Below, piece by piece: positions 1,337-40,181 of a stretch of DNA of 64,000 bases (positions are counted from its first letter, which is position 1; each line of letters begins with the position of its first letter). The stretch lies in assembly GCA_046563655.1 (NCBI GenBank), contig CM102285.1:6076001-6140000 (forward strand), given 5' to 3'. Origin of the DNA: Yuukianura sp. NJ FZ-2021 (lineage: Eukaryota). The notes beneath the pieces are model-generated. The model did no database searches, had not been told where the DNA came from, and saw only the letters and a list, made by a program, of their open reading frames with translations. The position numbers and the translations under genes are program-made.

Positions 1337-1980
1337 TTGGAATTCTCAATTCCTGGCGTTTGGAAGAACTTTGCTTAAAAGGGGCAAGCTAATGTGCATT
1401 GTTGTGAGAAATAAGTATATTTATATTGATTTACTAATAAGACAATAATGCACCCAAAATAATTACACATTTTGTTGAAACAAGTTTTAGCGTCCGGGTC
1501 AAATATTGCCTGCTTGATAACAAAATATTTAGTTTAGGTATTAATATAGCATATTACATATTCAAAAACATATTTTCTTTATTTTAGGCTGCATTTTAAA
1601 GGACAAAACCGCTGTTGAATTCTGTGGTTTAATAACAGAGATCGAAAACATCGACTCATTTTCGTTTATTTCAAAAATTGGCTTACGTTTTCGTCCGCGT
1701 TGGAAAATGTTTACGGTAATGGAAGCGAATGCAGTGGTAAGACATAATACATGTTAATAATGAAGTTATTAAAATTTAAAACAGTCATACACATGTATAG
1801 TTGCAGTTGGGGAAAAGCAAACGTAAATTGCTTATGACTCAAAAATTTGAACATTTTTTTTGTAGAAAACCGCCAAAAAGGGGGATGAAGAGCAATGCCA
1901 AAATGGTGCACTGATTGACGTAACCAAATCGCCGCAGAAAATTGCTGACGAAGATCATCGCCAACGGCAAAACTTATGAA

Positions 1981-4900
1981 ATGGAAGAAGAAGCAACGGG
2001 ACTCCAACAACCAGATTTGAGTTACTTGCTAGCGAAATCCAACTTGGTGCAACCACCGATTAGTTCTAAAAAGGTTCAGTTAAATTTTCAAGGTTTAAAT
2101 GCTGCCTTTGAGCCAGAGGTAGAAAAATTAGGGCTGAGCATAAAAGTGGTTGCGACAATCGTTTTCCATCGATTGCTCCGCATCTACGGGGGGACAGAGG
2201 AGACCGTCGTTCTTGACGCAGATGCCATGCGCGTCTTCACTTTCTTACGACATGATGAGGTAGGTGGTCTCTCCGTTTTGGAAGCCTTGAAACACCTTAA
2301 AGTTAAAAATATTTCGCTGAAACATGAAAAAACTGAAAACGGTTTTGTTACGCTCGAAAACGATTCATTTTTGACGAAAAACGTTTCCAACAAAGCAAAA
2401 ATTGTAACAATGTCAACTCAAAAAAACTGCTCGAATGCAAGTGAATTGTTGCATTTTGAAGCTGTAGAGTTCCCCATGTGGTCGTTTGCTGCAACTAGTT
2501 GCGTAATTTCGGTGGAAATGTTGGACGAAATGATGACTGCGTTTGAAACGATGCTGAATCACGTCATTTTGCATCCGACGGACATGTTAAGGAATTTGCC
2601 ATATTTGAACACAGTGCTACTTGCAATTTTAAAGGATGAATGGAATTCGACGCGCGTTAAATTTTCCAGTGAGGACAACACACTGCTTGAATTGTTCAAA
2701 GAAATGGTTGCAAAATACCCCAACAGGGTAGCTGTGGTGCGTGAGGAAGTGAAGTTAACGTATGCGCAACTGGACATAGAATCGGACAAACTTGCGCACA
2801 GGTTAAGTCAACTGCCATCAGAGGTCATTGACCTTGAAAAGGTCATTGCTCTGTACTTGGACAAAAGTGAGCTCATGTTCGTTGCTATTCTGGCAACTTT
2901 CAAGATCGGATGCGCTTACGTTCCGCTTGACCCTACTTATCCTGCGGCAAGAGTCGAATCCATACTGTCCGACACGCAAGCTAAATGCGTGTTGCTTAAT
3001 CGGCGGTACAAAAAGTTCACGCCATTTTCAAATTTGGTTAAAATTGAAATCGAGTCGGTTTTGACGACGAACGTAGCGGCTGATGCTGTCCGACGTCTAA
3101 ACCTGACACCTAAATCGCTGGCTTATATAATTTTTACGAGTGGAACTAGCGAGGGGCGGCCAAAGGGCGTCATGACAGAACACAGAAACGTCACCAACTA
3201 TGTGAGTGACATGTCACTAAAATACTTTGGACATGATCCAAAAAATTCCGGAGAGGTCATATTGCAACTTTCGAATTACGTTTTTGACGTGGCAGTGGAT
3301 CAGATGTGGCTGGGATTGGCCAATGGCTTAACTTGTCTCATTCCACCACAGAATATGTGGCATGATCCAGAAATATTCTATGCTTATCTTCAAAAACACG
3401 GAGTGACGCATGTTTCCGGAACTCCGTCGTTTCTAAAACAGTTTCACTGGGACAGAATTCCGAGTTTGCGTAGACTAATTTTCGGTGGAGAAAAGTTGAA
3501 CCTCGAATGCTACAAAAGGGTACGCGGGGCAGGGCGATACGAACTGATTAGTATGTTTGGTCCCACCGAATGCACTGTAATTGCTGCACATTATCCAATG
3601 AAAGAATTCAGCACATGCGTGGGAGGTGCGATGGCCAACACAGCGTTTTACATTTTGGACGATGGTATGAATCCGGTACCGGTAGGAACAGTGGGAGAAC
3701 TTTACATAGGTGGGCATGGTGTGTGTCGTGGATACTTAAACCGACCGGAGCTTACGGCGAATGCGTTCGTTCAAAATCCGTTTGGCGGAGAATTTGAACG
3801 GTTGTATAGAACGGGTGATCTTGTTCGTCGTAACTCCGATGGATCAGTTTCATTCATCGGAAGAAAAGACGGTCAGGTCAAAATCCGTGGAAATCGAGTT
3901 GAAATCACAGAGGTGGAGCATGTACTTTTAAATTTCCCGCAAATTGACGATGGAGTTGTAATTGCACGGGAAAAAGAAAAAGACGGAGGTCTAGTTCTAC
4001 TTGGTTACTACGTATCTGTTGTGTCTCTGGATGAAAAATCTATTATTAGTTTCATGAAACAAAAGCTTCCTGACTTTATGGTTCCCTTTAGAGTCATGCG
4101 TATAAACAGCATCCCGTTGACCATTACTGGAAAACTGGATGCACGAAAGCTTCCGAATCCATGTGAAGAAGAACCGGCAATTTTGAAGTTTAGCATTTCT
4201 GAGCTTACTGAAAATGAGGTGAAGGTTTACAACATTTGGAGAGAAGCGATTGGTCCATCGTCAGGTTTCACTATTGACTCAAATTTTTTTGAACTTGGCG
4301 GGGACAGTCTCACCGCATTACAAATTGTTGCCAAACTTAGAGAAAAATGCGGTTTCTCGGCTACTGTTTCACAAATTTTTGAATTTCCAACAATCCGACG
4401 CCTCTGTCTCCAATTGGACAAAATAGAAAGCGTCACTGATCATAAAATAGATAAGGTCACGAGTCTGACCGGCTTGAACAATGGGAAAGTGGATTTGGCT
4501 TTGAACAAGGTCAAGGTCAAAGGTCAAGCCGAAAGTGTTTTCTTTGCAAACAGTTTACAGCAGGGTTTTATTTACAACTACCTCCGCTCTCCACGAGATG
4601 GTGCTTACATTGTCCAAAATTTGTGGCAGTACCATGAGGAAATTGACGTTTCAAAATTCCAAAAAATTTGGTTAACCTTGGTTTGGAAATATCCAAGTTT
4701 GCGGTTGCATTTTGACTGGGAAGATCAGTTGATTCAAATTATCGACGATGAAGCGAAGTTAGATTTTCGGTATTTACCGAATCTGTATGAGCCGATTGAA
4801 ACTTTACTAAAAGCGGATAGAAAAGAAGGTTTCGATTTGAAAAGAGCGCCACTTTTTAGAATTTACTTGATTCGTGAAGGCCCAGAACTGTTTAGTTGCA

Positions 4901-7900
4901 TCTTTAGTAACCACCATGCAATCATAGATGGAATTAGCACTGGTCTGCTTTTGGCTGAGCTCAGTGACCTTTACTCCGGCAAGAGTTTGGATTCAGCAGA
5001 GATCGATGACGCTTACTGCCTGACTCAAAAGTTTATTCAAGATTCTGATTTGTCAAAATCAGGATTGGAGTGGTGGAAATCTCGGTTGGGGCAAGTTGAG
5101 ACACGCAACAGTCTTGTCGGCATTTTGCACAAAAATAAACGACATCTTTCGCTTTTCAGCGTCACTGCTGTTGAATCTCCACAGAAAGCTTCTTTTCGTT
5201 TAGAAGATGAAACTATTTCCAAGTTAAGAAAATTTTCAGTTCAGAATGGATTTACTCTTCAATCAATTTTTCAATTTGCTTGGCACAAAATTTTGTCGGT
5301 TTATGGCACAAGTAAAGATACCGTAACTGGACTCGTTGTTAATGGTCGTAGCGCGCCAGTTCCAGGAATTCATAAATCTGTTGGACCGTATATCAACACA
5401 CTTCCACTGTATGTGCATCATTCAACAAATGACGCAGTCGCAATGATCCGAAAAGTACAACAACTTATACATGAAGTTGCGTCAAGAGAGTATGTTAATT
5501 TAACTGCGTTAAGTTCCGGAGAGGAGCGACTTTTTGATAATGTTTTTGTTTACGAAAATTACGCCGGACTTCCACGCGGAACAGCCGTCTTTGAAAACAT
5601 TGATTACCCGTTAGATTTACTTATCAAAGAAACAAAGTCCGATATCTTAGTTCAACTCACTTTTGATGAAGGACTTTTTGAATTTCAAAAAATTCAACAG
5701 CTTTTGGAAACTTTTAAACATGTCATTTTAGAAATTCCGAAAGGAGCGTTGACGTTGGTAGCGGAAACAGAGGAGGAAGAAATTTGTGAGAAGTTGCGTG
5801 GCCCGGTTGTAGAGTTTGACCAAAATTTAAAGTTGCATCAGCTTTTTGAAGTCAGAGTTTCACAGACGCCGGACAAAGTTGCCCTTTTGACGGAAACGAA
5901 AAAATGGACATTTGCTGAGTTGAATAGCTTAGGAAATGCAATTCGGCGGGAAATTGAAATTCAAAATCCAACCAATCCCGTGATCCCGGCGTTTTTTGAT
6001 GAACCTGCCCTTTTGCCTGCCGCAATTCTTGGAATTTTTAAATCCGGTGGCGGCTATTGCCCGCTGGATTCAAATCTCCCGCCAGAACGAATTACCTTCA
6101 TTTTGCGAGATATTGCTGCGCATGGGCAGAATTCTAAAATGGTCATTTTAACTTTGTCTCACCTTCGACCCAAACTGGATCAGATTTTGCACAAAAACAG
6201 GAATTGGCATATAGGGGTCATTGACATTGACTTAATTTCTGATCCAGTCGGAGTTGCAGGAGCTCCATTTCTGTCAGGAGACATTACAAGCGTCATTTTT
6301 ACTTCAGGGACAACCGGAGTGCCGAAGGGAGTTGTACTGAAACATGGTGGACTCATCAACTATTGCTTAGAGCAAATTCGGACAAACTTTACTTCCGAAG
6401 GTGACGTTGTACTTTCCTTACTAGGCTGGGCATTTGATGGATTCTGGTGTAGTTTGGCTCCAGGAATTTTTGGAAACTGTGCAAGCGCCGTTTTGTCTCC
6501 TAATGCGATTCTAGATGCAGAGAGTGTCGTAGAGTTCGTGATAAACAAAAGAGTGACGCATGTCGTTGGAAATCCGCTTCACCTTTGCCAGCTAAATCTT
6601 CATCGCGTACGAAGTTTGAAAACAATTTTATCTGCTGGCAGTGCCATGACATGCGCAGATGCTTCCAAACTTTTGAGTTTAAACGTTCGTCTTGTAAATG
6701 GATTTGGACCGACCGAAACTTCAGTGATTTCAACATCGGGCGACATTGCCGCCTCGGACGACATACATATTGGACAGCCGTTGGCCAACACAGAGTTGTA
6801 CATTTTGGATGAGGATTTGAACACCGTCCCGAGTGGAGCCGTGGGTGAATTGTACATTGGCGGGAATGGAGTTTGCGCGGGATATTTGAATCGACCAGAA
6901 GAAACTAAGACGCGGTTTATTTCAAATCCGTTTGGGTTAGGACTAATACATAAGTCAGGTGATCTGGTGTCTCTGCGTAGTGACGGGCACTTGGACTATC
7001 ACGGCAGACGAGATTTTCAGGTCAAGGTCAGAGGTTATCGTATCAACCCAGCTGAAATTGAGGCTACGGTGGCCACTTTCTCTGATGTGACGTTTGCAGT
7101 TGTTTCTGTTTTCAATGAAACCTTATTTGGATTTGTAGTTTCCAATGCAGAGGTTTTGGATATTGAACAACTTTTCAAATTTTTGGAGGAAAGACTGCCT
7201 GAATACATGATTCCATCTAGATTTATTCAAATGCAAAGTATACCGTTAAATTCAAACGGAAAAGTAGACTATAAGAGGCTTCAGGAAATTTCACTCGATC
7301 AAGTGGTGCGATCTAGTGAAAAAATTCGGCCGAGCAATATCTTGGAAGAACAAATTTCTACACTTTGGGCCGAAATTCTCCGAATATCGGACAATTCCGA
7401 AAAACCAGGCATTGGTATTACCGAGAACTTTTTTCGGCTAGGTGGAGACAGTATTTCTGCAATTCAAATTGTTTCCCGCCTAAGACAGCGCCTCGGTATC
7501 ACAATCCGAGTGGCAGATGTCTTTAAAACCAAAACGATTCAAACTTTGGCAAAACTCATAAATTCCCAAATGGAAACCCAAATTCCAATTACTACCCCAA
7601 TTTCGGAATCGGGCATGCTGATTGGTCAAGTGCCGCTTTTACCAATCCAGGATTGGTTCTTTGCTAAATTTAAAAAAGGCGGGATGAATCATTTCAATCA
7701 GGCATTCCTTCTTAGAGTTCCGCCTCTAGATGTCAGCCGACTCCAAAAATGTGTATCCGTAATGCATGACTTCCACGATAGTTTGCGGCTGCGTTTTGTT
7801 CTAGAAAATAATACAGTGATTCAAAGTTATGCTGCAGAAACTGTTCCTCCTAAGGTACGTCACTTTTCCCACGAAGAAATTCAAACCAATTCGGAAATAT

Positions 7901-10900
7901 TAACTGAAGTTCAGAGTTCATTTGATTTGACGATTGGGCCAGTTTGGTCAATTAATTACATTGATGGTTACGAGGACGGCTCAGCACGACTCCAATTTGC
8001 TTTTCATCATCTCGTTATTGATTCTGTCAGTTGGCGCATTCTGGTTGATGATTTGTTTCGACTTTATTATGCAACAAATTTCGAAGGCGCGATTTTTCAA
8101 ACAAAAGGAACAAGCTACCGACAGTGGGTCAATGCTTTACGGAAGTTGTACGATTCCTCTGCTATGAATCACGAAAAAATGTATTGGAACAACATTAGTT
8201 CTGCATACCGGAATACCGAAGTTTCGAGTTCGATACAAACAATTTTACCGTTGGGATCGCCTACGCTGTCAGTTTGTCGCTTTACATTAGACAAAGGTAC
8301 GACCACTGCTTTGCTCCAAGTTGCACCGAAGTCGTTCAATACAAATGTGGTTGAACTGATTCTGACTTCTCTGGCATATGTACTAGCTAATACAACTGGA
8401 AATAACAAAAATTTTGTTACGCTTGAGGCCCATGGTAGAGAAGACGCTCTTATAGACGGTGTCGACCTTAGCAGAACAGTCGGTTGGTTTACGACAATGT
8501 TTCCATTTGGATTGAGCACAGAAAAGACAATAGGCGAAACCATAATGCACATTAAGGACGCATTCCGTGCTATTCCGAACAAAGGAATTGGCTACGGCAT
8601 TCTGATTGGCTACGCAGATCCACCACTTCCACCAATCACAGTCAATTTTCTAGGAAATTTTGACCAAGAGGGAAAATGGACATTCACGAACGAATTTGCC
8701 GGAGAAACATGCTTGCCCAAACAAAAGGACATTTCAGATGCGCTAACTCATAACAAAGTTGAGCATTTGTCAACGCAAAGTGACATTCAACTGCCATCTC
8801 ATATGAGTATAGACATTAGCATTGTACAAGGAGTTTTGGAGGCGGAGCTTAGCGGCAACCTTGAACAGAGTTACTTGGAGAGTTTTGGCGGCAATTTGAG
8901 CCGGGAAATCCAATATGTAGTTGAGTACTGCACAAACTTAAGCCGGTCGTACCTCACTTCCAGTGATATTGGCTGTAAAATTTCAAAAACAGTTTTGGAC
9001 AAAATTCAAAAAGAGCGGGAAATTGAGTCAGTTTTCAAAATGTCCAGCCTACAAGAGGGATTCATCTACTATCAACTGTCCCATCAACAACCACCTTATG
9101 CATACCATGTTCAGCACACTTGGAATTATGAATGTGACCTTCATCCAGAAGTCATGCACCAAGCATGGCAAGAAGTCCAGTTCTGCTTTCCCGCTTTGCG
9201 TTTGCGTTTTTGCTGGGAAGCAGAATTTGTCCAAATTGTTGACAAAAGTCAACCACTGAATTTTAGTTTCCGTGACCTCACAAGCTTGACCTTAGAAAAA
9301 CGCCAAACAGAGATTGGCGCAGTTTTGCAAGCTGACAACATCCAGCCGTTTGATCTTGCAACAGGTTCACTGTTCAGAGTATACATTGTAAAGCAGGGGC
9401 CTATGACATTTACTACTGTTTTTACGCATCATCATGCCATTCTGGATGGTTGGAGCTTAAATGTCCTCTACACTCGTCTACACACAATTTATCTGGAACT
9501 GCTTAAAGGTCAAAGGTCACAGTCACGACAGACAGTTGACCACGCGTACATGTCTGCGCACAGTTATCTCCAAGAGCATTACTCCGATAATCTTGATTGG
9601 TGGAAAGCTTATTTAAGTAGGATTCAAGAAAAGTGTGACATGTCAGGGCTAATGCGCAAGAATAGGACTCAGGAGGGTCAAAGGTCAGAAACAATTAACC
9701 TAAACTTACCAAATGAAGTTCTCCGAAATTTGAAATTTGCCGCGTCTAGTTCTGGTGTAACATTGAGTGTTGTATTCCTGTACGCATGGCACAAATCTTT
9801 GTCAGTTTTCGGTTCCTGCTCACAATCAATTGTTGGAACGACTGTTTCCGGCAGAAATCTGCCAGTAGATGGGATTGACACCAGCGTAGGCTGCTATATA
9901 AACACACTTCCATCAATATTTGAACACACAAAAGGCAACATTAAGCAGGCGCTGAAAACTTTGCAGGAAGACATTTTGGAACTAAATGGAAAGAGCAATG
10001 TTCTTTTAAGCGATTTGGTCAAAATCGCTGATCTATCAGAAAATGAACGTCTTTTTCAAAATATTTTTGTCTATGAAAACTACCCTAAAATAACCGATTC
10101 TGCACAAGAGCTGTGCATTTCAAATCGAACGACTTATGAGCGCCAAGAATTTCCTTTGGCGGTGTTGGTGGAAGAAGATGGCGACAGTTTTACATGTTCT
10201 GTAACATACGAAACAACCTTGTACGACACCAATCAGCTTGTGAAGTTGGTCAATACATTTGAAAATGTTCTTCGCGCCATTGCTGAAAATCCAAAAGCTG
10301 ATGTAACTGCACTTCGTTATGTTAATGACACGGATCATACGCTATTGACAGACTGGTCCAAAAAAGAAGTTCCATTTCCAGAGCATTTATTGGTTCAGGA
10401 TTTGCTTCAAACGTGGGTGGAAGCGACGCCTCAGGCGGTTGCCGTTACGACAGAGCTTGCATCGCACAGCTTTGAGAGTTTGTGGCATAGAATTAAGTGT
10501 GTGGCAAATCATCTGCGAAGTGTCATACATTTTGAAGGGACCAAAGATGTGTTTGTGCCATTTTTCATATCAGAACCGCATTTGTTGGCTGAAACAATTT
10601 TTGGAATTTTGAAGGCCGGCGGTGCCTACGTTCCGTTGGATCCTACGTTACCAAAGAGCAGAATGGCAAATATTCTGAACCAGATTAAACCTCAAGTTGT
10701 TTTAACTGTGAGTCCACTCCGCAGTATTCTGGAATCATTATCACAAGATTTGACTTTCAAACTTAAGGTCATTGACCTTGACATAGACGTAGACTGGGAG
10801 CAAGGGTCGTGTTCAGAAATCACAGGAAATTCAAATGAAATTCAACGCTGTAGCTCTGATGCTGTTTACATGGTTTTCACTTCCGGTTCCACTGGAACTC

Positions 10901-13900
10901 CCAAAGGAGTAATCGTTGAGCACAAATCGCTTGTGAACGTAGTTCTAGAAATGAGTCGATTCATGAGCAGTGGAACAGAAGTGGTTTTACCACTGTTTGG
11001 ATGGGGATTTGACGCTATCTGGTCTGCATTAGGAGTGGGGCTACTGTCAGGCGGGGCAACAGTTTTAGCCAATCCCAGCACAGTATTGGACGCAGAACGC
11101 TTAATTCCGTTTTGTACAACAAACTCCGTTACGCAAATCCACGGAAATCCACTTCTCGTGCAGCAATTGCCGCTCGAAAATGTTCCGTCACTGAAAACAG
11201 TTTGTGTAGCAGGGCAAGACATAAGCACTGCATTTGTTGCTCATTTCCGTCAAAAATATCATAATGCTACTCTGATTAACGGATATGGCCCTACGGAAAC
11301 TACTGTAGGTTGTACTTTGGAGAAAATTGAAGATGAATCTGTGTCAATTGGCAAATGTATTGGAAATATCACTGCTCATGTGCTAGATCCATTTGGAATT
11401 CCAGTTCCAATTGGGGTGAAAGGCGAATTGTATATTGGAGGGGTGGGAGTTGCACGCGGGTATTTTCACAATGAAGAAAAAACGAACGAATCTTTTTTGA
11501 AAAATCCATTTGGTCATGGGAAAATTTACAAAACGGGAGATATTGTCTATTGGACAGAAATAGGAAAATTGGTGTACGTGGGACGACGGGATTTCCAAAT
11601 TAAAGTCAGAGGTTATAGAGTAGATTTTAGTGAAATTGAAGCAGCAGTTGAATCTTACGAGGGAATTCAAAAAAGTGTGATTTTGGCCTCAAAAAACGAA
11701 AATGGCCAACAAAAATTAATTTGCTACGCAGTTCCAAACTCTCCACAATGGCCGTCTACTGCACAGGTTTTTGCACACCTTGAAAAGATTTTACCAGAGT
11801 ATATGATTCCGGCAGGAATCCACTTCCTTTCAAAATTGCCGCTAAATTCAAACGGAAAGTTGGACACTGGTAAACTACCGACAATAGAAGAAATAACACA
11901 AGTGAAACGTAAAGCGCCGCGCACGCCTCTAGAGTCACTCATCTGTGAAGCATGGGCGTCTGTTTTTGGTGTAGATGCTGAAACAATTGGGATTGATGAT
12001 AATTTTTTTCGACTCGGCGGCGATTCTGTATCGAGCATTCAAGTTGTCGGAAAACTTAGATCACAACTTGGTGCATCATTTCCAGTAACCGTACGGGATA
12101 TTTTGAATTACAAAACAATTGAATCTTTAGTAGCCAACATTGATTACACTACAATCAAAAATTTTGAAATTGAACAAAAAATTTCTGAAAAAATTGAAAA
12201 TTTTGAAAATGGGCGCTGGATTTGCGAGGCAAATAGTCTACAAGAGGGGTTGGTTTACCACTTTAAAACAAGAGGGCGTCATGCAGATGCCTACGTAGTA
12301 CAGAAAGTGATTCACTATGGTGAGGTCATTGACCTTCCAAAAATAAAAACTGCTTGGACCATGGTACATGCACAGTACCCAGGACTTCGGGTCAAGTTTA
12401 GTTGGAAAAACCGCGTAGAGCAAATTATCGAGGAGGTCATTGAACCTCTAGATTGGAGAGAAGTAACAGCCTTTACTGCGTCCGAATTTGACCAAATTGT
12501 TGCTCGAGATCGGTCGGAAGGATTCGACTTGGAAGCAGGGAATTTGCTTAGGGTCACTTTTGTACAATTATCGGCAATGTTTCAGTGTTTACTGACCGTA
12601 CATCATGCAGTTAGTGATGGTTGGAGTACAAATCTTCTTCTCGGAAACGTCCATGCAACATACTACGCATTGGTCAACGGCAGTTCTCTGCTACCAATGG
12701 CAGTCGACATGTCGTACATGGTTGCACAGCGACATCTCGCGGCAGTACAAAACGAATCTCATGCTTTTTGGGATTCCCTTAATAGTTCAGTTGAATCTCG
12801 GCCTGATTGGTCCAGCCTTTTGCAATCCACATACGATTTAGCACCACAACTCATTGATGAATCAATTTCGAATTCTTTCAAAGTTAGAACCGAGAGTATA
12901 AAAGTATCGACCGAATTGGTCAATGAGGTTCGTCGAATCACTTCCGAAATCGGTGTAACTCCAAACGCTCTATTTCAACTTGCGTGGCACAGAACTCTAC
13001 GTGTATTTGGCCATACCGAACAAACCGTCGTCGGTACAACTGTATCCGGTAGAGACATTCCGGTAGATGGAATTCAAAGTTCAGTAGGTTTGTTTGTAAA
13101 CACTTTGCCTCTGGTACTGGACCACGTTGAACTCGACAATTTAACTGGTGTTGAAGCACTGAAACTTGTTCAAGAGAGGACAATTGAATTGAACGCTAAA
13201 AGTAGTCTGAAGTTAAGCAAATTGAAATCACTCCAATTTGATTCAATTTACGCTTTTGAAAATTATCCAACATGGAGCCAAAATGAAAAATTTGATCAAA
13301 TTTTGAAAGTTTCTTACTCTGAAGGAATTTCTTACGAAGACTATCCATTGCTACTTACAGTGACTTTGAAAGGTCAGGAATGCTCATTAGAGCTACAAAG
13401 TTCGTCAAAATTTTTAGCATCAGCGACAGAACGACTTCTGACTACAATGTACAACGTTGTCCAAAATATTCTAAAAGGAGTTTACAACCGAGTAGACTCT
13501 TATGCATATTTGAACCAATCAGAAATCAAAGAAATTGTTGACAAAAATACTCTCAAGCTTCCTGTTTACACTCATACTGTTCTAAACAACTTTCGGGTAA
13601 ATGTCGCAGAGTGCCCCGAAACAATCGCGGTTATCTACAATGATGTTTCAATTTCGTACAAAGAGTTAGATAGAATGTCGAACTTAATTTGTCGAGATCT
13701 AGTTCGGAACTATTCGCAATTTGTCGGCAGGGATCAGTTAGTACCGATATTTTTAGACAAAAGTCAATGGACACAAATCGGAATCCTTGGAATCATGAAG
13801 ACCGGTTCAGCTTACGTTCCGATCGATCCAATTTTTCCTCCGCAGAGAATTGAAAATATATTGAACGATGTTTCCGCACATGTGATTGTGACTAGTTCTG

Positions 13901-16900
13901 ATCATGCGCACAAATTTCCAAACTACAAGCTGATTTTAGTCGATGTTGTTTCTACCAACACAGATGCAGTTGAGGTAAAAAGCTTAGGGGTGGATCCCCT
14001 TCCAGAAAATTTGGCATACGCAATCTACACAAGCGGCACGAGTACTGGCAAACCAAAGGGGTGTTTGATAGAACACCGAAATTTGATTAACTACTTGGAA
14101 GACACTTCAAATAGACTGTTCGGCGGAGTCAGGGTCAGAGGTCAACGACCTCATGAAGTACTGCTGCAACTGGCAAGTACGACCTTTGACCCCTCAGTGG
14201 ATCAAATATTTCTGGCTTTATACAATGGTTATACTTCAGTCGTACCGCATGCAGATCTCTGGATGGACCGATCTGGCTTTGTGGCTTACTGTTCAAAAAA
14301 CGGTGTTACAAATATTTTTGGCACGCCATCTATGCTAAAACTTTTTAACTTACACGAAATTCCTAGTCTACGGTCAGTCAGAGTCGCTGGAGAAAAAATT
14401 AGTATTGAGGCGTACAACAAGGTCAAAGGTCACGGGTCATACGAAGTTGCCAACGTATGCGGCCCAACTGAAACTACTGTCGTGTCTACTTTTAAGCATA
14501 TGAAGTCATTTACATACTCCGTTGGTCATCCAATAAGCAACGTTTCCTTCTACGTCGTGGATTTTGGCGGGAAGCAATTTGTTCCAGTTGGGGCAATAGG
14601 AGAACTGTATATTGGTGGAGCGGGAGTTGGGCGCGGGTACTTGAATCAGCCAGTTTTAAATGACAAACTATTTAGAACCAATCCGTGGAATTCAGGAGAC
14701 AAAATTTATTGTTCGGGTGATCTCGTTCGGAGACTTCCAGGAGATGAAGTTGAATTTATAGGAAGGAGTGATGGACAAGTCAAAGTTCGCGGATTTCGTG
14801 TTGAATTGGGGGAAGTTGAGACAAGATTGCTTTCACATCCTGAAGTGACAGAGGGCGCTGTTGTTCGTAAGGAACACAATGGAACCAGTCACGTGACTGC
14901 CTACTATATTTCAGCAGTTGACCTCAGTGTTACTGATCTACGTGATTACATGGCACAGATACTTCCAGATTACATGGTTCCTAGTGCTTTTGTTCGTATG
15001 ACTCAGATTCCTCTAACAAACAACGGGAAACTGGACATAAAGGCTTTGCCTCTTCCACAGTCAACTTCAGACCAAGATTCTGATTTTCAAAAACCACAAT
15101 TTGAAATTGAGCGCCAAATCCTTGAAATTTGGGCAGCCGTTTTAGGAATTGAAAGTTCAACAATTAGTACAACCGACAATTTTTTTGCGCTAGGTGGCGA
15201 CTCCATCACTGCTTTACTGATTGCAGAGAAACTAAAATTGACTTTCGGTAGTCGATGCAACGTCACCGTAAAAGACGTAATCAATCTCAAAACTGTTAAA
15301 CTTTTGGCTAAAAATATTGTACAAATCTACGAAAATGTCGCACTGGCTTTACAAGAATCAGGCAAAGTGAACAATTCACACGAAAATTTAAAAAATGACT
15401 CAGTGCAGTGGATAGGAAAATCAAATAGCTTGCAAGAAGGTTTCGTATCTCAGTTTCTAAGTAGAGATGACGAGGATGATTCGTATGCTGTTCAGGTTTT
15501 GTGGAAGTATGAGCATGAAGTTGATGCTCAGGTGCTGAAACGTGCTTGGGAGATTGCTTATTCAAAGCTTCCCGGGCTGAGGGTAAGATTTGAATGGTCG
15601 TCCGAAGTGTTACAAGTTGTTGACAAGGCAGAATTTTCGTTACTGGACTGGCGAGAACATAACTGGGAAAACTTAAACCACGATGCGCAGATGCAAAGTT
15701 TGAACAAACTGCGCATGTCGGACAGGGCAGAGTATTTTGATTTAGCCAAAGGAAATCTTTTGCGCTTGTGCTTAATTAAATGCGGGCCACGTTGTTGGTG
15801 GTGTTTGTTGTCCAACCATCACGCCATTCTGGATGGCTGGTCAAGCTCAATTTTATTGACAACAGTTCATAACATTTATAGCAAAATGTTAGAATCTGGA
15901 GTTGGCAAAATTCAAACAAATTTTGAAATTTTGAAAACGGTGCCTCAAAATGAGGAATTTCAAAGCTGTGTCGAAGAAGATTTAGCATACTTTGAAGCCC
16001 AAGAACAAATTGAGAATAATAGCGTCAACCAGACTGAATTCTGGAAGAAAGTTTTGGGAGAAGTTAGCGAAGAGGCGGATTTCACAAGCTTGACTGCAAC
16101 ACATGCACAATCGCTGAATTTGAAATCTTTGAATTCAAACACCTTGGACTTAAGCACATTACTTCCACGCCTCACTCAACTTTCAAGTACATTTGGATTT
16201 ACTTTCAACACTGTCTTACAATTCGCCTGGCATCAAGTTTTGAGAGTTTTCCTGCGCATGAGCAAAACCGTTGTGGGCACAACGGTATCTGGTAGGAGCG
16301 TGGCTACTCCGGGAGTCTCGCGTTCCGTAGGGCTGTTCATCAACACATTGCCATTAGTAGTTGATCATCATGTTTTGGATAGAATGTGTTTAGTGGATGC
16401 TCTTGAACTTGTCCAGTCAGCTATTCTGGAAATAAGTTCAAAAAGTGGCGGGAAACTTCGTAGTTTGCATAGACAGGGACATTCAGGACGTCCGTTTGAA
16501 AGCCTTTTCGTTTTTGAAAATTTTCCGGAACACGACAACTTAAATTGGGAGACTCGTTTTGGAGTCAAGGAAATTCAAGTTTTTGAAAAATTGGATTTCC
16601 CACTTGTTGTTACTGTTCGAGTTACTGGAAAACAGGAGTTGCAAGTGACGATTCTCAGTTCAAATTCATTTCAACCGTCTAGCGTACGTTCACTCATTCA
16701 AACTTTTGAATTTGTACTTACTTCTGTTCTAGACACTTTGTACTGTAATCCGCAAGCTCTTTGCACTGAAATCTCATACTGCCATAAGTTGAACTTGAGA
16801 ATTCTTGACAATTTCGATAAAAATCCCAGGGATGGTGGTGACAACAATTCTTTAATTGCTGAACAATCTCCCACGTTAATTGATTTGTTTCACATCGCAG

Positions 16901-19557
16901 TGGTAAATCACCCAGAGGCAGTGGCGTTAATTACTGAAGCGGGAAGTTTCACCTACAGTGAGCTTGATATAATGTCGGATGCATTGGCTAGTGAAATTTT
17001 AAAAATTGGCGGGAATTTTGTGGGTCCTGATAAACTAATTGCTCTGTATCTTGAAAAAAGTGAATGGACTGTCATTGGAATTCTAGGAGTCATGAAGACT
17101 GGAAGTGCATATGTGCCCATAGATCCAGAATATCCTGAGCAACATGTACTTCAAATCCTAGAAGATTGTCGCGCGCCAATTTTGATCACAAATAATGTAA
17201 ATTCGATCCTTTCAAAGTTGGCACTTGACTTGATTCAAATTTTTATTGAAACTGCTGGTGCAGAAAAGGCCGAAAAGGGCAACAATTTGGAATCGGAATG
17301 TATTTGCAAACAAAACAAAATTTTTGAAACCGTCTGCGAGGGAAAAAACAAAACTTTGGAAATGGTTATGGCGGAAGAACATAAAATTTCTGGATCCAGT
17401 TTTGTCAGAAACGATGAAAATTTGAAACCGCATTTTGCGGAAAGGAACGAAGTTTTGAAATCAAAATCTGCCACAACTGGAAAAAATTTGGCTTATGTAA
17501 TATACACTAGTGGAACAAGTGGAGAGGGACCTAAAGGATGCTTAATTGAGCAGCACAGTGTTATAAACCTAGTTGAATCTCTGAGTTCAAAATATTATGG
17601 TGGGAAAATACAAAATTGCATGGAGAAGTCCATGGCCGCAGAGGTCATTCTGCAACTGTCAAACTATGTCTATGACCTTTCTGTTCTCCAAATGTGGTTG
17701 GCCCTGTTAAATGGTCACACTATTCTATTGCCATCGCATAAACTGGTTCAAAATGTAGATGACTTGACAGACTTCATGACTCAACATGGTGTTACACATG
17801 TCTCTGGAACGCCATCTTTCCTCAAATTGATTCCATGGCATAAAGTTCCTACACTTAAACGTCTGGTTCTTGGCGGAGAAATGCTCTCATGTGAAGCTTG
17901 GACAGAAATTTCAAAAACGCGGGAATCAAACGTTTTCGAGATTATAAATGAGTACGGGCCGACCGAAACTACAGTAACATCTTCATATTTTCAAATGAAT
18001 GAATACTCTAAATGCATTGGAAGTCCAATTGCACATACTGAATTTTATGTCATGGATGAGAGTTTTAGGATACTGCCAGAAGGCGTTGTAGGAGAATTGA
18101 TGATTGGCGGGAGAGGACTTGCCCGCGGGTATTTAAATCGGCCGGAACTCACTGCCAAAAAATTCGCTTATGTCAATGGTCAACGCTTTTACCGCACAGG
18201 CGATTTGGGTAGACGTGTGGAAGGCTCCAATTTTGAAATTATTGGTAGAAATGACAGCCAGGTTAAAATCAGAGGTCACCGCATTGAATTGGAAGAAATT
18301 GAGCATGCGCTAAGAGGATTTAAAGATGTTACAGACGCTGTTGCTGTTGTAAAAGAAGAAAAGTTAATTGGGTATTATGTTTCAACAAAAGAAATTTCCA
18401 GTGCCCAATTTCGAAATGATTTGCTGAAAAAATTGCCAACAGTTTGCGTTCCTACTGCTTTTGTTCGAATCGACAAAGTACCACTTGCGATTACTGGAAA
18501 AATTGATATTCGCGCTTTGCCGATTCCAGAATTTCATGGCGCCGAAATTCAAATTATGCCAAAATCAAATGAAGAGAAAGCAATTGCACAAATTTGGGCA
18601 GACATTTTGAAAATTCCTGAAGCTCAAATTGGAATTGACCAAGATTTTATTGAATTGGGGGGAGATTCTTTGCTTTTTATGCAAATGATTCAAAAAGTTA
18701 AACACGCCACTGGGCTGAACGTCAAAGTCAATGAAGTTTACAGAGAGAAGACAATCCGAAAATTGGTACTTGGCGCTGAAAAACCTTTGTCTTCTGACTC
18801 TGCTGCGCTTATGCAAGAGAATGTTAGCCTTAAGATGGAAGATTATCCCGAATTTGAATCTTTTGAAGAAATTGAAGGTGTGGGTGACCGAATTTTTCTT
18901 TTCCCACCAGGGTTGGGCGGCGCCGATTCGTACAAGGGGAGCATAGTGCCGTTGCTTCATCCTCACAAACTAGTTCTATTCAACAATTTTTATGAGTTTT
19001 TAAAACAGCGTACTGGAATGCGCATTCCGTATGAAACTGCAGCGAGGGAATACTTGATTCAAATTAAAAAGTTGCAACCAGTCGGTCCTTACCATTTTGT
19101 AGGTTGGAGTTGGGGTGGAGTGATAGCTTTTGAAATTGCGCGCCAACTGACGACAGAGGGCGCTGTAGTTGGAAACGTTTTCATCATTGATTCGTTTTTT
19201 CGGTTGAAAACGGCCCTCTGTCCGGCAGATGCTGAGCGATTGAAAAACGAAAACGATGTTAACTACCACCACGATCCGCCAGAAACTCCGGGGCTGAGGT
19301 CAGTGAACTTTGTTTTGTTCAAGGCCACACAAGTTATACCTAATGGGTTAAACTTAGATGAAGAAGACAACGCTCTAGATAACAGAATTTACACTTATTA
19401 TGTTAACAATACAATACATAATAGCTTGGATTGTGTACTACCGCCACAAACTCCACTTGAAGTGGTGCCAATTGAAACCAATCATTTTCAGTGGTATGAA
19501 AACAAAAAAGTTGTACAAAAAATTGGCAATACAATATTCAACAAAATGGATTGTTAA
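1981..19557 (+). CDS. Five-module nonribosomal peptide synthetase, ACV-synthetase-related (C*-A-T-C-A-T-E-C-A-T-C-A-T-C-A-T-TE), ~5860 aa, single coding exon
   Basis: One open frame; first in-frame ATG at 1981. Five A domains (TSG..PKG at ~3136, 6301, 10879, 14029, 17506, with GPTE, GEL.IGG.G and (T/S)GD motifs). Five T domains (LGGDS at ~4294, 7438, 12013, 15190, 18655). Four C domains (HHAIIDG ~4912, HHAILDG ~9430, HHAVSDG 12601, HHAILDG ~15817). One E domain (PIQDWF, HHLVIDSVSW, EAHGRE, RTVGWFT, PNKGIGYG; ~7620-8950). TE with GWSWG at ~19102. Confidence 0.96.
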   Translation: MEEEATGLQQPDLSYLLAKSNLVQPPISSKKVQLNFQGLNAAFEPEVEKLGLSIKVVATIVFHRLLRIYGGTEETVVLDADAMRVFTFLRHDEVGGLSVLEALKHLKVKNISLKHEKTENGFVTLENDSFLTKNVSNKAKIVTMSTQKNCSNASELLHFEAVEFPMWSFAATSCVISVEMLDEMMTAFETMLNHVILHPTDMLRNLPYLNTVLLAILKDEWNSTRVKFSSEDNTLLELFKEMVAKYPNRVAVVREEVKLTYAQLDIESDKLAHRLSQLPSEVIDLEKVIALYLDKSELMFVAILATFKIGCAYVPLDPTYPAARVESILSDTQAKCVLLNRRYKKFTPFSNLVKIEIESVLTTNVAADAVRRLNLTPKSLAYIIFTSGTSEGRPKGVMTEHRNVTNYVSDMSLKYFGHDPKNSGEVILQLSNYVFDVAVDQMWLGLANGLTCLIPPQNMWHDPEIFYAYLQKHGVTHVSGTPSFLKQFHWDRIPSLRRLIFGGEKLNLECYKRVRGAGRYELISMFGPTECTVIAAHYPMKEFSTCVGGAMANTAFYILDDGMNPVPVGTVGELYIGGHGVCRGYLNRPELTANAFVQNPFGGEFERLYRTGDLVRRNSDGSVSFIGRKDGQVKIRGNRVEITEVEHVLLNFPQIDDGVVIAREKEKDGGLVLLGYYVSVVSLDEKSIISFMKQKLPDFMVPFRVMRINSIPLTITGKLDARKLPNPCEEEPAILKFSISELTENEVKVYNIWREAIGPSSGFTIDSNFFELGGDSLTALQIVAKLREKCGFSATVSQIFEFPTIRRLCLQLDKIESVTDHKIDKVTSLTGLNNGKVDLALNKVKVKGQAESVFFANSLQQGFIYNYLRSPRDGAYIVQNLWQYHEEIDVSKFQKIWLTLVWKYPSLRLHFDWEDQLIQIIDDEAKLDFRYLPNLYEPIETLLKADRKEGFDLKRAPLFRIYLIREGPELFSCIFSNHHAIIDGISTGLLLAELSDLYSGKSLDSAEIDDAYCLTQKFIQDSDLSKSGLEWWKSRLGQVETRNSLVGILHKNKRHLSLFSVTAVESPQKASFRLEDETISKLRKFSVQNGFTLQSIFQFAWHKILSVYGTSKDTVTGLVVNGRSAPVPGIHKSVGPYINTLPLYVHHSTNDAVAMIRKVQQLIHEVASREYVNLTALSSGEERLFDNVFVYENYAGLPRGTAVFENIDYPLDLLIKETKSDILVQLTFDEGLFEFQKIQQLLETFKHVILEIPKGALTLVAETEEEEICEKLRGPVVEFDQNLKLHQLFEVRVSQTPDKVALLTETKKWTFAELNSLGNAIRREIEIQNPTNPVIPAFFDEPALLPAAILGIFKSGGGYCPLDSNLPPERITFILRDIAAHGQNSKMVILTLSHLRPKLDQILHKNRNWHIGVIDIDLISDPVGVAGAPFLSGDITSVIFTSGTTGVPKGVVLKHGGLINYCLEQIRTNFTSEGDVVLSLLGWAFDGFWCSLAPGIFGNCASAVLSPNAILDAESVVEFVINKRVTHVVGNPLHLCQLNLHRVRSLKTILSAGSAMTCADASKLLSLNVRLVNGFGPTETSVISTSGDIAASDDIHIGQPLANTELYILDEDLNTVPSGAVGELYIGGNGVCAGYLNRPEETKTRFISNPFGLGLIHKSGDLVSLRSDGHLDYHGRRDFQVKVRGYRINPAEIEATVATFSDVTFAVVSVFNETLFGFVVSNAEVLDIEQLFKFLEERLPEYMIPSRFIQMQSIPLNSNGKVDYKRLQEISLDQVVRSSEKIRPSNILEEQISTLWAEILRISDNSEKPGIGITENFFRLGGDSISAIQIVSRLRQRLGITIRVADVFKTKTIQTLAKLINSQMETQIPITTPISESGMLIGQVPLLPIQDWFFAKFKKGGMNHFNQAFLLRVPPLDVSRLQKCVSVMHDFHDSLRLRFVLENNTVIQSYAAETVPPKVRHFSHEEIQTNSEILTEVQSSFDLTIGPVWSINYIDGYEDGSARLQFAFHHLVIDSVSWRILVDDLFRLYYATNFEGAIFQTKGTSYRQWVNALRKLYDSSAMNHEKMYWNNISSAYRNTEVSSSIQTILPLGSPTLSVCRFTLDKGTTTALLQVAPKSFNTNVVELILTSLAYVLANTTGNNKNFVTLEAHGREDALIDGVDLSRTVGWFTTMFPFGLSTEKTIGETIMHIKDAFRAIPNKGIGYGILIGYADPPLPPITVNFLGNFDQEGKWTFTNEFAGETCLPKQKDISDALTHNKVEHLSTQSDIQLPSHMSIDISIVQGVLEAELSGNLEQSYLESFGGNLSREIQYVVEYCTNLSRSYLTSSDIGCKISKTVLDKIQKEREIESVFKMSSLQEGFIYYQLSHQQPPYAYHVQHTWNYECDLHPEVMHQAWQEVQFCFPALRLRFCWEAEFVQIVDKSQPLNFSFRDLTSLTLEKRQTEIGAVLQADNIQPFDLATGSLFRVYIVKQGPMTFTTVFTHHHAILDGWSLNVLYTRLHTIYLELLKGQRSQSRQTVDHAYMSAHSYLQEHYSDNLDWWKAYLSRIQEKCDMSGLMRKNRTQEGQRSETINLNLPNEVLRNLKFAASSSGVTLSVVFLYAWHKSLSVFGSCSQSIVGTTVSGRNLPVDGIDTSVGCYINTLPSIFEHTKGNIKQALKTLQEDILELNGKSNVLLSDLVKIADLSENERLFQNIFVYENYPKITDSAQELCISNRTTYERQEFPLAVLVEEDGDSFTCSVTYETTLYDTNQLVKLVNTFENVLRAIAENPKADVTALRYVNDTDHTLLTDWSKKEVPFPEHLLVQDLLQTWVEATPQAVAVTTELASHSFESLWHRIKCVANHLRSVIHFEGTKDVFVPFFISEPHLLAETIFGILKAGGAYVPLDPTLPKSRMANILNQIKPQVVLTVSPLRSILESLSQDLTFKLKVIDLDIDVDWEQGSCSEITGNSNEIQRCSSDAVYMVFTSGSTGTPKGVIVEHKSLVNVVLEMSRFMSSGTEVVLPLFGWGFDAIWSALGVGLLSGGATVLANPSTVLDAERLIPFCTTNSVTQIHGNPLLVQQLPLENVPSLKTVCVAGQDISTAFVAHFRQKYHNATLINGYGPTETTVGCTLEKIEDESVSIGKCIGNITAHVLDPFGIPVPIGVKGELYIGGVGVARGYFHNEEKTNESFLKNPFGHGKIYKTGDIVYWTEIGKLVYVGRRDFQIKVRGYRVDFSEIEAAVESYEGIQKSVILASKNENGQQKLICYAVPNSPQWPSTAQVFAHLEKILPEYMIPAGIHFLSKLPLNSNGKLDTGKLPTIEEITQVKRKAPRTPLESLICEAWASVFGVDAETIGIDDNFFRLGGDSVSSIQVVGKLRSQLGASFPVTVRDILNYKTIESLVANIDYTTIKNFEIEQKISEKIENFENGRWICEANSLQEGLVYHFKTRGRHADAYVVQKVIHYGEVIDLPKIKTAWTMVHAQYPGLRVKFSWKNRVEQIIEEVIEPLDWREVTAFTASEFDQIVARDRSEGFDLEAGNLLRVTFVQLSAMFQCLLTVHHAVSDGWSTNLLLGNVHATYYALVNGSSLLPMAVDMSYMVAQRHLAAVQNESHAFWDSLNSSVESRPDWSSLLQSTYDLAPQLIDESISNSFKVRTESIKVSTELVNEVRRITSEIGVTPNALFQLAWHRTLRVFGHTEQTVVGTTVSGRDIPVDGIQSSVGLFVNTLPLVLDHVELDNLTGVEALKLVQERTIELNAKSSLKLSKLKSLQFDSIYAFENYPTWSQNEKFDQILKVSYSEGISYEDYPLLLTVTLKGQECSLELQSSSKFLASATERLLTTMYNVVQNILKGVYNRVDSYAYLNQSEIKEIVDKNTLKLPVYTHTVLNNFRVNVAECPETIAVIYNDVSISYKELDRMSNLICRDLVRNYSQFVGRDQLVPIFLDKSQWTQIGILGIMKTGSAYVPIDPIFPPQRIENILNDVSAHVIVTSSDHAHKFPNYKLILVDVVSTNTDAVEVKSLGVDPLPENLAYAIYTSGTSTGKPKGCLIEHRNLINYLEDTSNRLFGGVRVRGQRPHEVLLQLASTTFDPSVDQIFLALYNGYTSVVPHADLWMDRSGFVAYCSKNGVTNIFGTPSMLKLFNLHEIPSLRSVRVAGEKISIEAYNKVKGHGSYEVANVCGPTETTVVSTFKHMKSFTYSVGHPISNVSFYVVDFGGKQFVPVGAIGELYIGGAGVGRGYLNQPVLNDKLFRTNPWNSGDKIYCSGDLVRRLPGDEVEFIGRSDGQVKVRGFRVELGEVETRLLSHPEVTEGAVVRKEHNGTSHVTAYYISAVDLSVTDLRDYMAQILPDYMVPSAFVRMTQIPLTNNGKLDIKALPLPQSTSDQDSDFQKPQFEIERQILEIWAAVLGIESSTISTTDNFFALGGDSITALLIAEKLKLTFGSRCNVTVKDVINLKTVKLLAKNIVQIYENVALALQESGKVNNSHENLKNDSVQWIGKSNSLQEGFVSQFLSRDDEDDSYAVQVLWKYEHEVDAQVLKRAWEIAYSKLPGLRVRFEWSSEVLQVVDKAEFSLLDWREHNWENLNHDAQMQSLNKLRMSDRAEYFDLAKGNLLRLCLIKCGPRCWWCLLSNHHAILDGWSSSILLTTVHNIYSKMLESGVGKIQTNFEILKTVPQNEEFQSCVEEDLAYFEAQEQIENNSVNQTEFWKKVLGEVSEEADFTSLTATHAQSLNLKSLNSNTLDLSTLLPRLTQLSSTFGFTFNTVLQFAWHQVLRVFLRMSKTVVGTTVSGRSVATPGVSRSVGLFINTLPLVVDHHVLDRMCLVDALELVQSAILEISSKSGGKLRSLHRQGHSGRPFESLFVFENFPEHDNLNWETRFGVKEIQVFEKLDFPLVVTVRVTGKQELQVTILSSNSFQPSSVRSLIQTFEFVLTSVLDTLYCNPQALCTEISYCHKLNLRILDNFDKNPRDGGDNNSLIAEQSPTLIDLFHIAVVNHPEAVALITEAGSFTYSELDIMSDALASEILKIGGNFVGPDKLIALYLEKSEWTVIGILGVMKTGSAYVPIDPEYPEQHVLQILEDCRAPILITNNVNSILSKLALDLIQIFIETAGAEKAEKGNNLESECICKQNKIFETVCEGKNKTLEMVMAEEHKISGSSFVRNDENLKPHFAERNEVLKSKSATTGKNLAYVIYTSGTSGEGPKGCLIEQHSVINLVESLSSKYYGGKIQNCMEKSMAAEVILQLSNYVYDLSVLQMWLALLNGHTILLPSHKLVQNVDDLTDFMTQHGVTHVSGTPSFLKLIPWHKVPTLKRLVLGGEMLSCEAWTEISKTRESNVFEIINEYGPTETTVTSSYFQMNEYSKCIGSPIAHTEFYVMDESFRILPEGVVGELMIGGRGLARGYLNRPELTAKKFAYVNGQRFYRTGDLGRRVEGSNFEIIGRNDSQVKIRGHRIELEEIEHALRGFKDVTDAVAVVKEEKLIGYYVSTKEISSAQFRNDLLKKLPTVCVPTAFVRIDKVPLAITGKIDIRALPIPEFHGAEIQIMPKSNEEKAIAQIWADILKIPEAQIGIDQDFIELGGDSLLFMQMIQKVKHATGLNVKVNEVYREKTIRKLVLGAEKPLSSDSAALMQENVSLKMEDYPEFESFEEIEGVGDRIFLFPPGLGGADSYKGSIVPLLHPHKLVLFNNFYEFLKQRTGMRIPYETAAREYLIQIKKLQPVGPYHFVGWSWGGVIAFEIARQLTTEGAVVGNVFIIDSFFRLKTALCPADAERLKNENDVNYHHDPPETPGLRSVNFVLFKATQVIPNGLNLDEEDNALDNRIYTYYVNNTIHNSLDCVLPPQTPLEVVPIETNHFQWYENKKVVQKIGNTIFNKMDC

Positions 19558-19954
19558 AATTAACCAAGAATTTTCAGTAGACGGTAGAACAAAATTTAAC
19601 AGAGGGCCAATGTACTTACAGGTTTATAGTTTCCTTAAAAGATGTGCGAGATAGTAATATATAATATAATAATCTATAAATACATAATGTATAATTTTGA
19701 TCAATTTTAGTTTGTTTTCACCAGTAAATCTGTTTGTATGATTAGCATATTTTTAAGGCATACAGAATTTCTAAAACAGTGGAAATATACTATTTAAATG
19801 TATAAACATTGGGCGTCGATTACTCCTTATTCTGGCTTAAATCTTTATAATCATTTCTATGAGTGGAATGGGAACTTATTTCTACTTGAAAGGTCATAAG
19901 GATTCGGTCGATTCATTTTTTTTAGTTTTCGGGTTTTTTTGGGATGTTTTTTTG

Positions 19955-20358
19955 GTTCCTCTGACGTGTCTCCTCATTTTCGTCACACCTTTCTCTATTG
20001 GAATCGGACCAATATGTACATGAGAATTCGTCATTAGGTTACAGTTAGGTTGAGTGAAAGTGATCACTTAACACCACTTTTATGACAATCGATCTAAGAA
20101 AATCCAAATGGAAAATTATAACGTCATATAACATCATCATCATATAACAACTTATAACACCAACGTCATAAGGTGTTGTCCTTTGTCATCATAACGCTTG
20201 GATTCACAGGACTGATGGAAGGAATAGGACGGGCTGGTGGCTACTGGATATTTGGTGGAGCATCTTTCCTCGGTTTGATCTTCATATGCTTTTGTGTACC
20301 TGAAACGAAGGGAAAGTCACAGAAGAAATTAAATCACTTTTCAATTCTGAAAATTAGA
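19955..20358 (+). pseudogene. Remnant of an MFS sugar porter (Tret1/GLUT-like), C-terminal helices only
   Basis: 19955-20014 encodes VPLTCLLIFVTPFSIGIGPI (TM10-like). 20173-20319 encodes ..GYWIFGGASFLGLIFICFCVPETKGKS. The expected continuation EEIKSLF lies in another frame (frameshift ~20320). No N-terminal exons are visible. Confidence 0.7.
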
Positions 20359-40024: not shown

Positions 40025-40181
40025 TCGCCAAATTTATTAACTACAAGCGAAATTAAGAGTAACAGAACTTTTTATACAAATACGTAAATTTAATACAACT
40101 ACGAAATTTAAAAAAGGAAGATTATTGAACAGTTCCCACCAAACTTGGAGTATTCTTAATTCAGTTTTGAATTTTACAACA

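Follow-up and report, generated by a model that had tools for sequence, protein, structure and literature searches.

Gene and domain layout

We analysed a 64,000-nucleotide stretch of DNA from Yuukianura sp. NJ FZ-2021 (assembly GCA_046563655.1, contig CM102285.1, positions 6,076,001 to 6,140,000; referred to below as the window), which carries a gene for a five-module non-ribosomal peptide synthetase (NRPS). This gene is a single open reading frame on the forward strand (1924-19557, 5877 residues between stops; 1981 is the first in-frame ATG), encoding the domain order halfC-A1-T-C-A2-T-E-C-A3-T-C-A4-T-C-A5-T-TE (A, adenylation; T, thiolation; C, condensation; E, epimerization; TE, thioesterase). 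Parts of the protein resemble ACVS (PcbAB), the synthetase of the penicillin precursor aminoadipyl-cysteinyl-valine (ACV; Aad, aminoadipate). The features are as follows.

1981-19557, forward: five-module NRPS gene, uninterrupted from the first in-frame ATG (5858 amino acids); start site and 5′ exons putative
2029-2673, forward: degenerate C-terminal half of a C domain at the N terminus, as in ACVS (profile of 10 ACVS N termini, 34.8 bits)
2761-4134, forward: A1, code DVDSIGMVIK (pocket residues 3286-3582); best guess a basic amino acid
4306-4308, forward: phosphopantetheine Ser of T1 (GGDSL motif)
4531-5793, forward: C2, ANSLQQG (post-E type) class with no preceding E; HHAIIDG intact
5911-7263, forward: A2, code DGCVLAGVIK (pocket 6436-6729); predicted hydrophobic substrate, epimerized
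7450-7452, forward: Ser of T2 (GGDSI motif)
7687-8973, forward: E, the sole epimerization domain (HHLVIDSVSW and EAHGRE motifs)
9025-10353, forward: C3, post-E class, the sole C domain preceded by E; HHAILDG intact
10483-11859, forward: A3, code DASHCAGVGK (pocket 11011-11310); best guess an aromatic substrate
12025-12027, forward: Ser of T3 (GGDSV), of pre-E type sequence yet directly joined to C4
12205-13539, forward: C4, post-E class without E; HHAVSDG
13657-15030, forward: A4, code DPDFRAVVVK (pocket 14188-14484; Arg299 at 14380)
15202-15204, forward: Ser of T4 (GGDSI motif)
15400-16788, forward: C5, post-E class without E, sister of C4; HHAILDG
16954-18501, forward: A5, code DLLSVGEVTK (pocket 17674-17979); best guess Tyr
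18667-18669, forward: Ser of T5 (GGDSL motif)
18841-19554, forward: TE, a member of the family to which ACVS TEs also belong (GWSWGG motif; the Asp and His positions are there as well)

The catalytic motifs are present throughout: the Ser in all five T domains, HHxxxDG in all four complete C domains, both E motifs and the TE GWSWGG. Asp235, the GPTE motif and Lys517 are found in five of five A domains, as a sequence-only reading of this DNA had noted for Asp235 and the terminal Lys. By its A, T, C and TE motifs the protein is a linear multimodular (type A) NRPS. The N-terminal ~230 residues match ACVS N termini weakly (34.8 bits; internal C-half profiles give 10-20 and shuffled sequences at most 7), and on the same yardstick a rotifer ACVS derivative reaches 147 bits and some unrelated C halves 30-49. 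This half C domain is probably non-catalytic; a single-sequence fold of the region gave a pLDDT of 36 and was not used.

The A-domain codes are not those of ACV synthetase

Extraction by alignment column gave the codes DVDSIGMVI (A1), DGCVLAGVI (A2), DASHCAGVG (A3), DPDFRAVVV (A4) and DLLSVGEVT (A5), with the A10 Lys codons at 4132, 7261, 11857, 15028 and 18499. All five are identical to the codes that the sequence-only reading had obtained by eye; the range it assigned to them, 3270 to 17985, stops short of the A10 Lys of A5. The register was checked in several ways. A4 aligned without gaps from Asp235 to Gly302 with the TycA PheA domain (PDB 9bfd), pairing DAWTIAAIC with DPDFRAVVV; TycA and GrsA have one common code, DAWTIAAICK (PMC12283262, Table S19). 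LgrA A1 read from the alignment was DGLYIGGIM, matching the published code, and the same columns in bacterial matches yielded well-known codes for Thr, Ser, Gly, Asn, Asp and Cys.

As a control we used full-length three-module ACVS-type proteins gathered by a TE profile search, some of which are named ACVS, including one tardigrade and one fungal protein. All 12 gave the codes EPRNxxEFx, DHESDxGIT and D(F/L)ESxAAxY. These reference codes were taken from the sequences, as a text search for the code strings gave no paper; they bear out the EPRN, DHES and DFES that the sequence-only reading gave for Aad, Cys and Val. Within a module the ACVS codes agree with one another at no fewer than 6, 8 and 7 of 9 residues, respectively, whereas any code of the window gene shares only 0-4 of 9 with them, and no three consecutive modules give Aad-Cys-Val.

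The layout differs as well. ACVS has three modules (A-T-C-A-T-C-A-T-E-TE) and the window gene five (A-C-A-E-C-A-C-A-C-A); in ACVS the E belongs to the last module and immediately precedes the TE, whereas here E follows T2 and T5 is joined straight to the TE; ACVS A1 has Glu235 and the window A1 Asp235, with no Aad, Cys or Val code elsewhere in the gene; and the second C domain of ACVS is of the LCL class, whereas the C domains here are all of the ANSLQQG class. In the searched genome (98.7 Mb in 22 contigs) an ACVS-fragment query found no ACVS, only the window gene, a second NRPS on another contig and smaller A-domain genes, with 35-39% identity in NRPS A and E domains. Isopenicillin N synthase (IPNS) was likewise not found with a Streptomyces IPNS protein and one motif pattern as queries, and the DIOX_N loci examined lacked IPNS motifs. 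The earlier expectation that the product is no penicillin precursor is thus supported by the codes, the five modules, the position of E and the lack of ACVS and IPNS hits; judged from its sequence, this enzyme is very unlikely to make one. An ACVS-like best match in an animal genome, therefore, need not imply β-lactam synthesis.

Some pocket residues are rare. Among 1382 other A domains (a redundant, non-random set), none has Arg or Lys at position 299 and one has Asp at 239, a residue found in two of the five codes here; Glu322 occurs in 157.

Predicted substrates

We compared the codes by eye with part of the tables of PMC12283262 (main text and supplement). A1 ties at 7/10 between an Arg/homoarginine code (DVESIGGVTK) and Tyr, Trp and Thr codes. 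Lys or Arg is favoured because residue 239 is acidic and because the sister domain, from protein P0130, has an Arg-like code (DAESVGAVG, 9/10 to Arg DAESVGAVDK; P0130 is sister to A1, A4 and A5); whether A1 would take a Lys/Arg-type substrate is nevertheless about an even call. By its residues the basic-looking pocket is that of A1, which the sequence-only reading had not singled out. For A2 the best published matches reach only 6/10 (Val, Ala, N-methyl-Val/Leu and Trp), and its all-hydrophobic pocket makes a hydrophobic substrate, as a class, likely. A3 matches Tyr DASTLAGVCK at 7/10, so that an aromatic substrate is slightly favoured.

A4 is the most unusual. Its nearest codes are of Pro type (6/10 in the PMC12283262 tables; DPVFVAHVV, 6/9 in the 1382-domain set), it agrees with the Aad code DPRHLALLAK at 4/10, and Arg299 occurs in no row of the tables compared. 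The suggestion that Arg in this pocket points to an acidic substrate is possible, yet the nearest codes are Pro-type and Arg299 is unmatched in the 1382 domains; we regard an acidic substrate as a tentative guess and a Pro-like or small one as somewhat less probable still. Arg299 may simply pair with Asp239. A5 agrees at 8/10 with the iturin-type Tyr code DALSVGEVVK and at 7/10 with Asn, but lacks the Lys278 of Asn codes, which tips the balance slightly towards Tyr or another aromatic residue. The view that Glu in the A5 pocket signals a basic or polar substrate found no support: the best match is a Tyr code. In the rows compared, Glu322 goes with Asn, Tyr, Trp, His and Leu codes but with no code for Lys, Arg, Orn or Dab (PMC12283262). 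A tentative working model of the product, with low confidence for each residue, would be basic?-D-hydrophobic-aromatic?-X-Tyr?.

Condensation domains and loss of epimerization domains

All four C domains fall into the distinct ANSLQQG class (tree support 100/100). Elsewhere its internal members mostly come after an E (28 of 33 in other proteins), as against 0 of 18 for ACVS C1 and one of four in the window gene. C4 and C5 are sisters (100/96), and A1, A4 and A5 form one clade (97/88) with a one-residue P-loop insertion in common. This pattern suggests that an A-T-E-C unit was duplicated and that E was then lost repeatedly. C2, C4 and C5 would presumably be post-E-type domains that lost their E and accept L donors, for which glycopeptide NRPSs provide a precedent of post-E-type (DCL) C domains with LCL activity (PMC1894796).

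The C3 region drew attention for other reasons. One run (X4) has a contig ~93% identical to 9079-10509 at a depth near 500, versus about 5 elsewhere, and runs X2 and X4 both have loose ends at 9519 and 9744; this contig is possibly a multi-copy element with a C-domain piece, or an amplification bias. C3 also carries a His-His-His stretch, which resembles one in the β-lactam-forming C domain of NocB; NocB-like chemistry by C3 was considered and dropped, the A2 code not being of Ser type.

An orthologue and evidence of selection

A metagenome contig (L127) encodes P0122, the top match in the TE profile search (62%), which spans A4 to TE and is 62% identical to the window gene (1204/1938 positions). 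The search used one representative per 50% cluster, and more orthologues may hide behind P0122. dN, the rate of amino-acid-changing substitution, is 0.29 and dS, the synonymous rate, about 2.4 (near saturation), so that dN/dS is about 0.12. The A4 code is identical (9/9), the A5 code is DLLSVGEVS (8/9), and 17 of the 18 code residues are therefore kept, Arg299 through a synonymous change. The orthologue has an 84-base GT-AG intron (L127:973-1056) within the codons of the A4 GPTE motif, where the window gene has none, and this spliceosomal intron identifies it as eukaryotic. Compared with the orthologue, the window gene has two extra AT-rich segments (near 15900-15960 and 17250-17480), which were tried as introns and rejected; both are open in frame and are kept as insertions.

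A first metagenome scan gave no relative among 594 pattern matches, a second gave one among 97, and plasmid searches returned neither ACVS nor a close relative. No full-length orthologue was among the matches listed in word-based homologue searches, which were dominated by long bacterial NRPSs and do not show its absence; with the TE region as query such a search gave no match. DNA runs of two studies cover every one of the gene's 30 bins. Other runs have 42 indels, and the 12 of these that were listed fall outside the frame; the 32 best-supported single-base variants listed within it comprise 17 synonymous and 15 amino-acid-changing ones.

Genomic setting and a candidate exporter

The NRPS gene lies on a 15.3-Mb contig, flanked by intron-rich animal genes. 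Its neighbours encode zinc-finger, Myb/SANT, PDZ, G-protein-coupled receptor, subtilase and P450 proteins, gene types that identify the host as an animal; it is probably a springtail. G+C content at third codon positions (GC3) is 0.37 in the NRPS frame and 0.30-0.42 in six neighbouring frames. The gene thus has the marks of a horizontally acquired, domesticated animal NRPS: it is of bacterial type yet surrounded by genes of the host, its base use resembles theirs, and it is kept under selection. One phosphopantetheinyl transferase (PPTase) gene was found in the genome.

110-178, reverse: coding exon 1 of an ABCC4 (MRP4)-like exporter gene with many introns; the other exons lie just beyond the window

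The exporter gene starts at window position 178 on the reverse strand, head-to-head with the NRPS, with 1.8 kb between the start codons. The second NRPS of the genome likewise has a head-to-head ABCC gene. An ABCC exon query matched at least 26 genomic places, so that two NRPS-ABCC pairings would be unlikely to arise by chance.

The second NRPS (G000:C7:5548612-5586588, reverse strand, loci L041-L045) is a single 12,659-residue frame that holds nine A and four E domains. Its nine C domains are all of the ANSLQQG class, five of them without E, and two near-identical A domains (code DAMYSGSIA) reflect a recent duplication.

Relation to the ACVS family

Trees were built from subsets of the domains collected (A, 45 and 30 of 855; C, 42 of 873; TE, 58 and 39 of 195), leaving out one long-branch A row, one long-branch TE row and, from one A tree, the window A2. 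The best A trees under two models put A1, A4 and A5 outside the ACVS clade (99/96 and 99/99), and the C tree puts the window C domains outside the ACVS C1 clade (99/91). The TE lies among non-ACVS TEs, where bootstrap support is not settled. The nearest outside relative of A1/A4/A5 is P0130, which is not an ACVS and also belongs to the small clade of the TE. A2 and A3 have very long branches and are unsurely placed; an approximately unbiased (AU) test did not reject a single clade of the five window A domains (p 0.41). Identity to ACVS A domains is 37-41% for A1 (36-41% for A1/A4/A5). The window enzyme appears to work as an ordinary linear NRPS assembled from parts of ACVS lineage; the best trees place it beside the ACVS family rather than within it, but AU tests did not reject descent from ACVS. 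Two Rotaria proteins, P0155 (DMESLIAVY) and P0184 (DPNSEGRIA), fall within the ACVS A clade but have changed codes, and are, from that position, ACVS-derived enzymes re-coded in animals.

Proposed function and alternative explanations

The explanation we prefer, and consider fairly likely, is a functional NRPS on an animal chromosome, bacterial in ancestry and of the wider ACVS lineage, rebuilt by internal module duplication and E loss and making a pentapeptide unrelated to ACV. A host PPTase, for which the gene is present, would prime the five T domains; A1-A5 would load five α-amino acids, as their Asp235 and Lys517 suggest; and E, which has its motifs, would convert residue 2 to the D form. 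C2-C5 would then link the residues, with C2, C4 and C5 presumably taking L donors, and the TE would release a linear or cyclic pentapeptide. The head-to-head ABCC4-type pump could export it, most likely for antimicrobial defence. In a more detailed scenario, which we think rather unlikely, A4, with Pro236 as in the Aad pocket and Arg299, would grip the α-carboxylate of Asp, Glu or Aad and activate the side-chain carboxyl, the E-less, ACVS-C1-class C5 would join Tyr through an isopeptide bond, and the exported D-residue pentapeptide would be a defence compound replacing a β-lactam pathway in an animal lineage that lacks IPNS.

Several observations weigh against the preferred explanation. AU tests did not reject nesting within ACVS, with A1/A4/A5 joined to the Cys module (p 0.10) or the Val module (p 0.24), nor the window TE joined to ACVS TEs (p 0.07). 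The best match of any code to a characterized one is 8/10, and for A1, A2 and A4 substrates of different chemistry score equally. The orthologue comparison covers the A4 and A5 codes, A1-A3 lying outside it, and the pocket regions themselves are 86% and 68% identical, so that the code residues are not clearly more conserved (joint P about 0.06). In run X4 one contig at depth 4 has a replacement at 18812-18858, which would shift the frame if real. The link between the NRPS and the ABCC gene is one of gene position, and the NRPS is known here from DNA, its expression and product being predicted.

The gene could, alternatively, be a direct descendant of an animal ACVS that grew from three modules to five and gained new specificities after the β-lactam pathway was lost, with a product that would still not be ACV. 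The ACVS-like N-terminal half C, the C domains that lack an upstream E as ACVS C1 does and those of other proteins mostly do not, the identity of A1 to ACVS A domains and the AU tests fit such a descent, and the two rotifer proteins indicate that re-coding of this kind occurs in animals. We nonetheless consider it unlikely, if worth keeping in view: the best trees place A1/A4/A5, the C domains and the TE outside the ACVS clades, the second, LCL-type C domain of ACVS has no counterpart here, and the non-ACVS P0130 is the closest outside relative of A1/A4/A5 and shares the small TE clade. That the odd codes arose by drift as the gene decayed or lost part of its activity, with some modules dead, is improbable. 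The long A2 and A3 branches, codes off the known map and the share of amino-acid-changing variants among those listed would suit decay, but dN/dS is low, the code residues (Arg299 included) persist in the orthologue, there is no stop in 5877 codons and the listed indels spare the frame.

Very improbable, in our view, is that bacterial codes do not apply to so divergent an animal enzyme and that three modules still make ACV or a close analogue. The enzyme does have ACVS-like parts, and code prediction is weak for divergent A domains. Nevertheless, the tardigrade ACVS XP_055348191.1 (P0187) retains EPRN/DHES/DLES and the Plectus ACVS is predicted to make Aad-Cys-Val (PMC10531068), whereas the window gene lacks the Glu235-Pro236-Arg239 of the Aad pocket and has E after module 2, and IPNS was not found with the queries used. 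Least credible of all is a bacterial symbiont or contaminant gene assembled into the chromosome. The frame is bacterial in type, intronless over 17.6 kb, and close relatives carry the names Neptunochlamydia and Amoebophilus; against this, it sits between intron-rich animal genes on a 15.3-Mb contig with a GC3 within the neighbours' range, is present in the DNA runs of two studies and has an orthologue with a spliceosomal intron.

Related systems and significance

ACVS, known from bacteria, fungi, the springtail Folsomia candida, Plectus and a tardigrade, shares with the window enzyme the half C domain, an E-less ANSLQQG first C domain, the TE family and a single E, as well as occurrence in small soil animals. 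The tardigrade Paramacrobiotus protein (P0187) has the full ACVS architecture; a survey of two tardigrades found no NRPS (PMC10531068). The same article describes a second, non-ACVS NRPS in F. candida (LNIX01000001.1) and NRPSs unlike ACVS in Holacanthella duospinosa. These lie on springtail scaffolds and have no assigned function, and one of them may be the orthologue of the window gene. Bacterial ANSLQQG-class NRPSs ending in E-TE (P0031 Neptunochlamydia, P0126 Amoebophilus, P0002 Xenorhabdus, P0136 Vibrio, P0005 and P0130) have the same C class and TE family, with 33-40% identity per domain, but differ in that the class mostly follows E there. Among the relatives found, no protein has the module order or codes of the window gene. 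The rotifer P0155/P0184 and the bdelloid NRPS and polyketide synthase (PKS) genes, for which a role in defence was proposed (PMC11258130), are further animal cases of foreign origin with non-ACV codes, although P0155 and P0184 nest in the ACVS A clade and the window domains fall outside it in the best trees. The DCL-sequence C domains of glycopeptide NRPSs (Rausch et al. 2007, PMC1894796) are two domains from actinobacterial heptapeptide lines, in proteins unrelated to the window gene. We found no description of this five-module enzyme in the literature searched, mostly outside subscription papers.

Non-ACVS springtail NRPSs have thus already been reported but are uncharacterized, and for multimodular NRPSs of animals it is mostly the number of genes that is known, few having a known product. 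The finding of non-ACVS codes is in itself modest; what is of interest is an animal NRPS that is intact and conserved, has unmapped pockets and adjoins a candidate exporter. Being one intact gene whose five A domains can be separated and whose pockets are unusual, it offers an entry to the products of springtail non-ACVS NRPSs. A4 would contribute a specificity code not recorded before, and the presence in the same protein of three post-E-type C domains that lack E would permit a test of how C-domain stereoselectivity is relaxed.

Other features of the window and genome

Directly past the NRPS stop, at 19841-20412 on the forward strand, lies a sugar-transporter gene fragment, 75% identical to a gene at G000:C3:11604682 and probably a partial duplicate. 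The idea that the NRPS sits inside a sugar-transporter intron was dropped: the scanned frames showed no transporter exons upstream, and the 3′ fragment is similar to a gene elsewhere on the contig. Further along the forward strand are an 866-residue open reading frame without a Pfam match (31085-33682) and two similar subtilase (Peptidase_S8) genes of two frames each (40041-41649 and 56771-58271), which bracket a run of Myb/SANT and C2H2 zinc-finger genes. Elsewhere in the genome, an A-T-C NRPS piece in two frames (G000:C6:6296766-6300682, reverse strand, loci L049-L050) adjoins ketosynthase and acyltransferase genes.

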